Positions 35,379 through 37,128 of a stretch of DNA of 64,000 bases are shown here, in pieces. Every line of letters starts with the position of its first letter. Within the stretch, counting starts at the first letter, position 1. The translations under genes were made by a program, and so were the position numbers. Source of the DNA: a phage; the sequence record PX880103.1; one strand, written 5' to 3'. The notes beneath the pieces are model-generated. The model ran no database searches. It was given only the letters and a program-made list of their open reading frames with translations, and was not told the origin of the DNA.

Positions 35379-35711
35379 TTATTTTACTACTTTCCAGTGC
35401 TGCATGTCAAGTTTACCAACTTTTTTCATCTTCTCAATTAAGCGTTCTGCGCGTTGGCGAGCTGTAACATAATGCCATTCACCTAATTCATTTTGTTCAA
35501 TTTTTCCAACGATTACTGTATTCAATTCATAAATCCAACCAGTAAAGAAATTATGAACTTGAATTGTAAAGGTGAAATCTGTTCCCATACCTTCTGTTGT
35601 TTCTACTTCAATAATATCACCTTCAACTGCCATTAAGAACCACATAGTTTCATCATATTTACCGTTGAAGCATTTAGTTTTAACTGCAGCGTTCAGATTA
35701 ATTGTTTTCAT
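35379..35711 (-). CDS. hypothetical protein (30.x)
   Basis: 110-aa ORF; early-type promoter 35734-35768. Confidence 0.55.
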   Translation of the reverse strand: MKTINLNAAVKTKCFNGKYDETMWFLMAVEGDIIEVETTEGMGTDFTFTIQVHNFFTGWIYELNTVIVGKIEQNELGEWHYVTARQRAERLIEKMKKVGKLDMQHWKVVK

Positions 35712-35733
35712 TTTATTCTCCTTTGTTTGTGTA

Positions 35734-35768
35734 AGATAATACTATCACAAAGGAACTATACTGTAAAC
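35734..35768 (-). promoter_or_regulatory. early-type promoter candidate (GTTTAC -35)
   Basis: GTTTACAG on minus strand with an AT-rich -10 about 17 nt downstream. Confidence 0.4.
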
Positions 35769-35797
35769 AACTTTGTGCAATCTTTGGAAAATAAAAA

Positions 35798-35817
35798 AGG
35801 ACTCCCGAAGGAGTCCT
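35798..35817 (-). terminator. terminator hairpin downstream of the 30.9-position ORF
   Basis: AGGACTCC-CGAA-GGAGTCCT; minus-strand RNA followed by UUUUUUAUUUU. Confidence 0.6.
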
Positions 35818-35821
35818 CAAC

Positions 35822-35998
35822 TTATGCTTTCTGCTTACCAAAACGAGAAGCATCATCTCGAAGAACCGCACGTGCTCGGCGCATGATCTTCTCAACAGTT
35901 TGATTGATACGAGAGTTCGACCCACGCTTGTAACCAGCGCGTTTAGAATCACCAACTTTCTTTTCAACTGCTTTCTTTGCTTTAGCTTGTTTTGCCAT
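35822..35998 (-). CDS. small basic protein (30.9 position)
   Basis: Track ORF 35822-36040; internal ATG at 35998 gives 58 aa MAKQAKAKKAVEKK...; terminator hairpin just downstream. Confidence 0.5.
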   Translation of the reverse strand: MAKQAKAKKAVEKKVGDSKRAGYKRGSNSRINQTVEKIMRRARAVLRDDASRFGKQKA

Positions 35999-36396
35999 TA
36001 TAAATTCTCTTTTAAATGAAAATGCAGGACTTATTGGCATTGCCTGCGCAAGCCCTCAAGGGGAACATAGGTTTTTGGATATTTAACGACCAGGATAACC
36101 ATAAACCCGTCATCATACCTTATAGCTCTTATCTGTTGCACACCGTTAGCTTAAAGGTTCCGGGTTCGATTTCTCGAGGATAAGATATATACTGATGGAT
36201 ATATAGGCCTTGAGGCGTACTCCCGATTGGCCATCACCTCGGGGTAGCATGCACTTGCCGCTATAAGAATAACATTCAAGAGGTACACCGTAAAACTGCC
36301 GGGGTCTTAAAACTATAATGATTCGCAAATCATTAATCAGACAGTTCGACGGCTCCTCGTTTTAACTTCACACTAAGGCAGTGACTCTCCAATAAA

Positions 36397-36645
36397 TTAC
36401 TTCAGTGTTACCACAAAGTGACGAACTGCTTTTCGTGCAGCAGAAGCCAGAGGCTTAGCATATTTAAGTTCATCTTTTTCCTGAAGCTCAGCAGCTAGTG
36501 CAGTTTGAGCAGGATTCAGATGTTTGAAATAACGCAGGATTTCAAGAGCTTCGGCTTCAACATCAATAGATGCGCCATAGTTTTCGTGACCATTATTCCA
36601 TGCGTTTCGTTGCAGTTCAAGAGCGTGTTGTAATTGTTTAATCAT
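36397..36645 (-). CDS. rIII: rIII lysis-inhibition accessory protein
   Basis: 82 aa as in T4 rIII; immediately downstream of gene 31. Confidence 0.85.
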   Translation of the reverse strand: MIKQLQHALELQRNAWNNGHENYGASIDVEAEALEILRYFKHLNPAQTALAAELQEKDELKYAKPLASAARKAVRHFVVTLK

Positions 36646-36784
36646 TTAAAAATTCTCATTAGAGATTAAAACTCAGTAGTCACGTTCTTCTGAATTTCAC
36701 TTCCTTTCGGCAAGTCTCTCAGTTGTAGACTACCACATAGAATTGTTCGGTTAACTTATTATTCCGACACCCAATTCATATTAT

Positions 36785-36792
36785 TATTTATA
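36785..36792 (-). promoter_or_regulatory. candidate late promoter (minus strand) upstream of rIII
   Basis: Plus-strand TATTTATA just 3' of the gene 31 stop. Confidence 0.4.
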
Positions 36793-37128
36793 TCACTTAT
36801 AAAGACACGGAATAGCTTTATAGTGACAGGTAACGAATTTTTGTTTAATTTCTTTTGGCTGCTTAAGACCCAGAGCTACAAAAGGATGCGGAACATTTCG
36901 AATTTGACCAACTGGAAGAGAAGTCAAATCGCCAACTTCGCAGAAACCTTTAGGAACATCAGGACCGACAGAGTGAACTACACACAGTTCAGGAACTTCA
37001 CCTTGGACACGTTTACCAATAATAAGTCCTGATTCTGTAACTTCTTCATCACCGGCTTGTGCAGGTTCAGAAACTAAAATAACATATTCACCGACAGCAC
37101 TAATTGGTAGCTGTTGTACTTCAGACAT
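36793..37128 (-). CDS. 31: gp31 co-chaperonin (GroES analogue)
   Basis: 111 aa as in T4 gp31; synteny. Confidence 0.9.

Follow-up and report, generated by a model that had tools for sequence, protein, structure and literature searches.

Several described RNAs serve as points of reference for a structured RNA that lies beside rIII, a lysis-inhibition gene of T4-like phages. The purine and lysine riboswitch aptamers have established structures that combine a P1 helix, a multi-helix junction, and neighboring arms tied together loop to loop. The natural hairpin ribozyme is built on a perfect four-way junction that places adjacent arms side by side, and one arm carries an internal loop. Among the T-even phages themselves, rnaC and rnaD of T4 (the species 1 and 2 RNAs) are non-coding RNAs of about 120–140 nt that come from a longer transcript and whose function is unknown. 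T4-type phages also harbor PeSL cassettes, reportedly described by Arbiol et al. in 2010, in which a sigma-70-type early promoter is said to stand beside a simple stem-loop at many loci. Finally, phi29 pRNA and the ROOL and GOLLD RNAs are phage-linked structured RNAs with complementary loops that mediate RNA–RNA contacts; these loop contacts are intermolecular and build oligomers (PMC12286853).

Here, we describe a 149-nt element located between genes rIII and 30.9 of a T4-like phage, in a stretch of 64,000 nt (sequence record PX880103.1) that we call the window. We regard it as nearly certain that positions 36119–36267 hold a real, selected RNA structure on the minus strand. Judged by its sequence and predicted structure, the element is a previously undescribed RNA family: it fails every test of known-family membership that was run, and a full-text literature search, sequence strings included, found no description of it. 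Our overall explanation, which blends our confidence in the structure with our confidence in a mechanism, is that this structure is an autonomous module that would bind a partner or assemble with copies of itself. We assign this explanation a probability of roughly 0.6.

The source genome belongs to Tequatrovirus and is ~99% identical to vB_EcoM_JB75 and PYPS2T across the rIII–30.9 region. All genes here lie on the minus strand, in the order cd, 31.2, 31.1, 31, rIII, spacer, 30.9, terminator, and 30.8 (Table 1), and the window RIII is 100% identical to T4-type RIII. The initial annotation had drawn a 356-bp, GC-rich, ORF-free island beginning at 36041. That edge was misplaced: it rested on a 72-aa ORF (35822–36040, ATG at 36040) that is an over-extension. 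The gp30.9 homologs of T4 and RB9 are 59 aa long, and their start is the ATG that corresponds to 35998 (MAKQAKAKK...), which AAAAGAGAA precedes. Because gene 30.9 starts at 35998, the non-coding spacer spans 35999–36396, or 398 bp. Base composition is as had been described. GC content is 0.441 for 36041–36396 versus 0.364 for the whole window, and the 120-nt core (36141–36260), given as about 50% G+C, is at exactly 0.500. No other internal stretch of the window runs as far without an ATG-initiated ORF of at least 50 aa, and the one TTG-initiated ORF is as claimed (60 aa, 36146–36328, minus strand); short ATG ORFs are also present and are not conserved. What failed was the treatment of the 356 bp as one unit. 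The region is a mosaic of modules, of which only 36119–36267 is the GC-rich structured core; the GC content of this element, 0.470, places it in the top 2% of 149-nt windows.

Gene 30.9 is conserved in all genera examined. Its product has no Pfam match and falls into phrog_1427 of PHROGs, a family annotated as function unknown. The sole canonical terminator outside coding sequence is that 3′ of 30.9. A weak Rfam match to the Rhizobiales sRNA Atu_C8 was seen at 35783–35866 on the minus strand (31 bits versus a gathering score of 50; E = 5e-4); the hairpin of this intrinsic terminator explains the match, and homology was rejected.

Table 1. Features of the rIII–30.9 region and parts of the RNA element, in window coordinates.
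Feature	Position	Strand	Description
rIII	36397-36645	-	82 aa; gene upstream of the element, same strand
Upstream spacer part	36268-36396	-	common to T4; outside the element; has a long hairpin including the 36317-36336 stem-loop
Structured RNA element	36119-36267	-	149 nt, P1 5′ strand to P1 3′ strand; single copy in window
P1 5′ strand	36260-36267	-	CUUAUAGC; pairs with 36119-36126
P1 3′ strand	36119-36126	-	GCUAUAAG; pairs with 36260-36267
Arm A	36206-36259	-	P2, internal loop, P3, L3
P2	36257-36259 with 36206-36208	-	GGC with GCC; 1 compensatory pair (GGU/ACC, fHe-Yen9-01)
P3	36239-36246 with 36218-36226	-	bulged A; 4-7 of 8 pairs compensatory
L3, terminal loop of arm A	36227-36238	-	12 nt
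L3 kissing nucleotides	36231-36236	-	UGAUGG; 6 bp with CCAUCA of the arm B loop
Arm B (P4 hairpin)	36186-36205	-	7 bp, 36199-36205 with 36186-36192; 3 compensatory pairs
L4, loop of arm B	36193-36198	-	6 nt, CCAUCA
Arm C	36127-36185	-	P5, then three-way junction: P6, P7, invariant GCAACA strand
P5	36179-36185 with 36127-36133	-	3 compensatory pairs
P6	36166-36177	-	GNRA (GAAA) hairpin; 2-3 compensatory pairs
P7	36161-36165 with 36140-36145	-	15-nt loop 36146-36160; 2 compensatory pairs
Joining strand	36134-36139	-	GCAACA; invariant
Downstream spacer part	35999-36118	-	common to T4; hairpin module B, hairpin C, weak terminator-like stem
Hairpin module B	~36072-36117	-	UAUGAUG-stem-loop-stem-GUUAAAUAUCCAAAAC; present in T4
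Hairpin C	36049-36066	-	GUUCCCCUUGAGGGCUUG; occurs once in window
Weak terminator/attenuator-like stem	36014-36047	-	GCAGG-(14 nt)-CCUGC then AUUUUCAUUU; before the 30.9 RBS; also in T4
Gene 30.9	35822-35998	-	59 aa, very basic; downstream gene in every locus
Canonical terminator	35797-35818	-	hairpin GAGGACUCC-UUCG-GGAGUCCUU plus U-run, 3′ of 30.9

Covariance model R1 matches the 64 kb only once, at 36115–36270 of the minus strand, with 184 bits (E ~1e-40). The closing helix, P1, differs in sequence in almost every genus and always keeps its complementarity. Specifically, compensatory changes occur at four of its five modeled pairs; JD18, for example, has UAAAC/GUUUA, and Moon has UUUAUAAGC/GCUUAUAAA. 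Beyond P1 comes a perfect four-way junction, in which no unpaired nucleotides link the helices. In arm A, a conserved internal loop of 10 by 9 nt (AAGUGCAUGC / CGCCUCAAG) separates P2 from P3. Arm C is the most conserved part of the element (GGUGUGCAACAGAU); the tetraloop of its P6 hairpin is GAAA or GUAA across the family, and the compensatory changes in its P7 helix include an A–U to U–A exchange in variant L088.

This fold is grounded in comparison among related phages. MAFFT was used to align 13 distinct sequences, and folding this alignment with RNAalifold gave a consensus of 42 pairs in eight helices, with compensatory double changes in 21 of the 42. In this alignment, 97.6% of cells are standard pairs, versus 27–42% when the 3′ partners are slid by one to three columns. 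Shuffled controls reached the observed value in 0 of 500 cases on four of five measures and in 1 of 500 on the fifth. An independent set, gathered through the rIII protein rather than through the RNA, comprised 50 IMG/VR rIII loci, 20 of which carry the element. Here, 98.7% of cells are paired and 25 of the 42 pairs are compensatory, with at least one in every helix. Over the two sets, sliding the partners lowers pairing to 26–42%. Covariance-model scores of these rIII-anchored loci are 126–187 bits, and there are no intermediate scores: none lies between E = 1e-26 and 1. The element family is sharply bounded. The thermodynamic signal of a single sequence is modest, with z = -1.96 for the window sequence; the centroid fold of that sequence alone is the consensus structure.

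The comparison also uncovers a tertiary contact. In every variant, all six nucleotides of the arm B loop are matched by a complementary 6-nt stretch in the loop of arm A, in the cognate combinations CGAUGG/CCAUCG, UGAUGG/CCAUCA, CUAUGG/CCAUAG, and CAAUGA/UCAUUG; three of the six pairs of this L3/L4 helix change on both sides. We interpret L3/L4 as a kissing contact. The covariation is compatible with either intramolecular or intermolecular pairing and cannot separate them, and in the absence of oligomerization data, the complementarity could equally be intermolecular, as in phi29 pRNA, ROOL, and GOLLD. The latter RNAs are, however, unrelated to the element in size, sequence, and context, and T4-type packaging is not known to use an RNA. 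A small GGC/GCC helix that RNAalifold draws within L3 is probably replaced by the kissing interaction. Two other candidate pairings were rejected. The first, a helix or pseudoknot between GCAU of the arm A internal loop and GUGC 3′ of P7, was taken from an all-against-all column scan; it never covaries and is also disfavored by L088, which changes U to A at the shared position and keeps P7. The second joins the 3′ side of the arm A internal loop to the P7 loop, and on inspection of the alignment its variants change in the wrong direction. With only about nine sequence types to compare, many positions do not vary and so carry no information, and pseudoknots beyond the kissing loop appear to be outside the reach of the available sequence diversity.

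Taken against these data, the proposal in the initial annotation of a structured RNA in the GC-rich core has gained strong support from eight helices, 21–25 compensatory pairs, and a covarying loop–loop contact. That annotation had also named findings that would count against it: an interval in T4 and its relatives that is equally long, unconserved, and without covariation, or a decayed ORF. In related phages, the interval is conserved and covaries; the idea that T4 might have an equally long interval was wrong, as T4 lacks the core; and no decayed ORF is apparent in any of six frames compared with Pfam and PHROGs. The individual stems that had been put forward survive less well. GAGG...CCTC is not a conserved helix, nor is CGGGA...TCCCG, whose two strings are one site read on opposite strands. 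The hairpin at 36317–36336 does exist, with a stem of 8 bp and a loop of 4 nt rather than the reported 5, but it falls outside the conserved element, and T4 has it too. This AU-rich hairpin caps a longer predicted stem, CCGUCGAACUGUCUG...CGGCAGUUUUACGG (36290–36350, minus strand), in the spacer part common to T4, and two GGAG motifs, possible RegB sites, occur just upstream of the hairpin stem.

No Rfam family matches the element. Rfam 15 (4227 covariance models), searched in E-value mode over 35600–36900, gave no match inside it, and a search of 36105–36280 alone with E up to 10 returned only two truncated snoRNA-like fragments (E = 5–9.5) in the 3′ flank. ARAGORN predicted 0 tRNA or tmRNA genes in the whole window. 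Running R1 with filters off on T4 positions 69000–75000 produced a best match of 5.1 bits and none on rnaC or rnaD, so homology to these RNAs was rejected. They occupy another locus, the tRNA cluster, and T4 possesses both rnaC and rnaD while lacking the element. Nor does the element fit the PeSL pattern: a sigma-70 scan found no promoter-like site within the spacer, the element has a single locus, and its fold is complex rather than a stem-loop.

Two features assign the RNA to the gene-sense (minus) strand: G·U pairs and the GNRA loop. The alignment contains 47 G·U cells that become A·C mismatches on the opposite strand, as does the conserved U·G closing pair of P4, and 99.3% of cells are paired in sense versus 95.3% in antisense. 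The tetraloop reads GNRA on the minus strand only. In Moon-, Karam-, and Kanagawa-type phages, only 3–5 nt separate the rIII stop codon from the start of the element, too few for a terminator or promoter. We infer from this spacing that the element is made on the rIII transcript; there are no expression or binding data to indicate whether a discrete RNA accumulates or engages a partner. A MotA-box-like sequence with TAnnnT, noticed upstream of the element by reading the sequence only, was set aside: its start would fall inside or after the P1 5′ strand. Because an internal start conflicts with the P1 covariation, we do not claim a dedicated promoter.

Nor does the element read as protein-coding. 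In-frame stops interrupt a 34-codon ORF inside it in 12 of 30 variants, frameshifts disrupt this ORF in EnC07 and EcS1, and its ATG is missing in fHe-Yen9-01; none of the six translated frames of the spacer has a match in Pfam or PHROGs. Several GenBank records annotate one or two hypothetical proteins of 34–65 aa across the element, as in MH355584 (JB75_0063A), MZ234027 (CHD2BS1_176/177), and MN395284 (PhiKpNIH-6, "Sixpack prediction"). These annotations are almost certainly spurious.

BLAST searches with the interval matched it in full in ~180 phage records, on the two flanks only in T4/RB-type phages, and over the central 135 nt only, at 94–96% identity, in Klebsiella Jiaodavirus phages. 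The element core exists in 411 GenBank phage records, compared with 1117 records that have an rIII homolog. When records are tallied by the first word of the phage name, core and rIII records number 161 and 162 for Klebsiella, 131 and 561 for Escherichia (about a quarter), 27 and 36 for Enterobacter, and 18 and 32 for Yersinia; Acinetobacter has 69 rIII records and is not among the top ten names listed for the core. Carriers among the fetched genomes include a subset of Tequatrovirus along with Jiaodavirus, Moonvirus, Karamvirus, Kanagawavirus, Marfavirus, and Kagamiyamavirus, and further carriers are Serratia phage 4S and the Tegunavirus fHe-Yen9-01 (phiR1-RT is without the element). The order gp31, rIII, element, 30.9 holds in 42 of 42 loci examined, with one copy per locus. 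In IMG/VR and metagenomes, the element resides almost entirely on T4-sized contigs, and the few short contigs that can be checked have the same flanking genes.

Remote members were sought in IMG/VR, metagenomes, and GTDB genomes using an exact 21-mer and a gapped pattern, and all phage matches were close variants. The element was not found in 185,579 GTDB species genomes, in which 31 loose-pattern matches approximate the chance estimate and none scores with the covariance model. E. coli genomes showed no similarity to it, and plasmids yielded only two matches, of 30 nt, attributable to chance. In these searches, the family is found only in T4-like phages of enterobacteria. Within it, the element is 81–93% identical to that of the window in JD18, Moon, 4S, EnC07, KpNIH-6, and myPSH1140, versus 69–76% for rIII and 67–72% for gp31 at the nucleotide level in the same six phages. 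In the most divergent carriers, EcS1 and Yen9-01, the element (65–69%) is no better conserved than flanking genes (rIII, 70–73%). These two phages contribute much of the covariation.

The element comes and goes cleanly. In T4 and RB9, "GA" replaces a 153-nt block containing it, and the flanking spacer is nearly identical; the T4 indel is clean and lies at the base of P1, with no target-site duplication at the T4/window junction. Phages VR7, IME281, and LF82-2 carry an unrelated ~50-nt cassette, AUUUUGUACUACCCCGCGUCAGAAAAAGGUUAUCUGUCUAAGUCGUGGUUGG, at the exact insertion point, just upstream of the UAUGAUGACG motif (window ~36118/36271, where T4 has "GA"). The cassette contains a hairpin, CAGA...UCUG, which is CAGC...GCUG in LF82-2. 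The neighboring hairpins are arranged differently among genera. Module B, conserved across T4-like genera including T4 with modest covariation (2–3 pairs), is downstream of the element in the window, Moon, EnC07, EcS1, and Yen9-01, and upstream in JD18, 4S, and KpNIH-6. Hairpin C is upstream in EnC07 and EcS1 and downstream in JD18, Moon, and 4S; its motif may be a recombination or processing signal. A degenerate copy of hairpin C, GUACCUCUUGAAUGU, is present directly upstream of the element in the window and also in T4. JD18-type phages have a GGGAGC...GCUCCC stem and U-rich run analogous to the weak terminator-like stem of the window. From the clean loss in T4, the variable position relative to the hairpin module, and the lack of a conserved adjoining expression platform, we infer that the element is a self-contained, dispensable module.

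A fold so elaborate and so strongly conserved implies a specific molecular job, whether binding, catalysis, or assembly. Moreover, the element behaves as a self-contained cassette at a variable site; this speaks against a riboswitch tied to a fixed expression platform and favors an autonomous RNA, that is, a partner-binding domain or a ribozyme. The mechanism we favor, though at somewhat less than even odds, is an autonomous partner-binding or assembly module; function has not been shown, and there are no binding data. The notion is that the folded domain would act through its invariant junction and loop nucleotides on a conserved partner. This partner could be a host or phage protein or, via the complementary loops, another copy of the element. 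Binding would occur while the RNA is attached to the rIII–30.9 transcript or after its processing from that transcript, and the element would not act as an mRNA-specific switch. The invariant synteny would fit a cis role, for rIII or for 30.9, equally well. RIII binds S1, a ribosomal protein, and keeps the RegB endoribonuclease from being activated (PMC9409239). It is conceivable that the same transcript supplies an RNA partner, but nothing supports this yet.

The alternative that survives best, which we nonetheless consider unlikely, makes the element a riboswitch-like or leader cis-regulator. It would be an aptamer in the 30.9 5′ leader or the rIII 3′ UTR that, on sensing a metabolite, ion, or protein, governs either the translation of 30.9 or how far transcription reads through the weak terminator-like hairpin that precedes this gene. 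One hallmark of riboswitches, a conserved, P1-closed, aptamer-like domain with covariation, is indeed present: like the purine and lysine aptamers, the element joins a variable P1, a multi-helix junction, and two neighboring arms in kissing contact with many invariant unpaired nucleotides, including those of the junction. It also always lies upstream of 30.9, and a stem plus U-run intervenes in the window and in JD18-type phages. The second hallmark, a conserved overlapping or competing expression platform, is missing, as P1 is followed by module B or C depending on the genus. In the window, ~70 nt that are also in T4 separate P1 from the terminator-like stem, and T4 has an identical leader and 30.9 without the element. 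Unlike the purine and lysine aptamers, to which it has no sequence or covariance-model similarity, the element has a four-way junction, an arm that is itself a three-way junction, no known ligand, and a varying position relative to flanking modules. No Rfam riboswitch matches it, and 30.9, a gene of unknown function, gives no hint of a ligand.

Somewhat less probable still is a new class of self-cleaving ribozyme that processes the gp31–rIII–30.9 transcript, for which there are no cleavage data. Small ribozymes are common in phage DNA, and the element is an autonomous module of ribozyme-like size in an untranslated region, independent of its flanks, with a highly conserved junction core. Its four-way junction, adjacent arms side by side, and internal loop in one arm recall the natural hairpin ribozyme; however, its arms are joined by Watson–Crick loop–loop pairing rather than by docking of two internal loops, and it offers no identifiable cleavage site. 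Local resemblances to loop B of the hairpin ribozyme lie within covarying helices, and we therefore treat them as coincidental. No ribozyme family of Rfam 15 matches even at E up to 10. Furthermore, the element is confined to one copy per genome, one syntenic locus, and one phage lineage, whereas known self-cleaving classes are dispersed across contexts.

We find it improbable that the element is merely a generic stabilizer that protects the gp31–rIII mRNA from 3′-to-5′ exonucleases or aids termination with no specific partner. A stem-closed structure in the rIII 3′ UTR would suit such a role, and T4 has other hairpins in the same spacer, but stabilization creates no need for ~65 invariant nucleotides, a four-way junction, a GNRA loop, or a covarying kissing interaction, and it does not call for an element better conserved than its flanking genes, as this one is outside EcS1 and Yen9-01. 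Finally, a DNA-level or decayed element, be it MITE- or IS-like with inverted repeats, a relic of the group I intron or homing-endonuclease kind that the initial annotation had allowed, or a small protein-coding gene, is very unlikely: presence and absence do vary among close relatives, the ends are inverted repeats, and several records call proteins here, but those ends differ between genera yet stay complementary, covarying instead of being conserved, a single copy per genome lacks a target-site duplication, the G·U pairs and GNRA loops point to RNA, the ORF is broken and without a family match, and neither an Intron_gpI match in Rfam nor an endonuclease ORF remnant in six frames exists.

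Few viruses have been studied as thoroughly as T4 and its relatives, yet hundreds of GenBank genomes leave the element unannotated or mis-annotate it. Its absence from T4 itself is probably why it was overlooked. An entry in an RNA family database would stop phage annotators from calling ORFs across it, and the covariation-supported model with its tertiary contact recommends the element for structure determination. Isogenic comparisons are easy, since the clean presence or absence of the element is all that distinguishes close relatives, and function should be directly testable. We speculate, with a little more reserve than we attach to partner binding, that the element represents a new functional RNA class specific to T-even-type phages and carried as an accessory module. 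Such a class could be a self-cleaving ribozyme, an RNA that binds a ligand or protein (perhaps as a decoy or sponge for a host factor or defense component), or an RNA that self-assembles via its loops.
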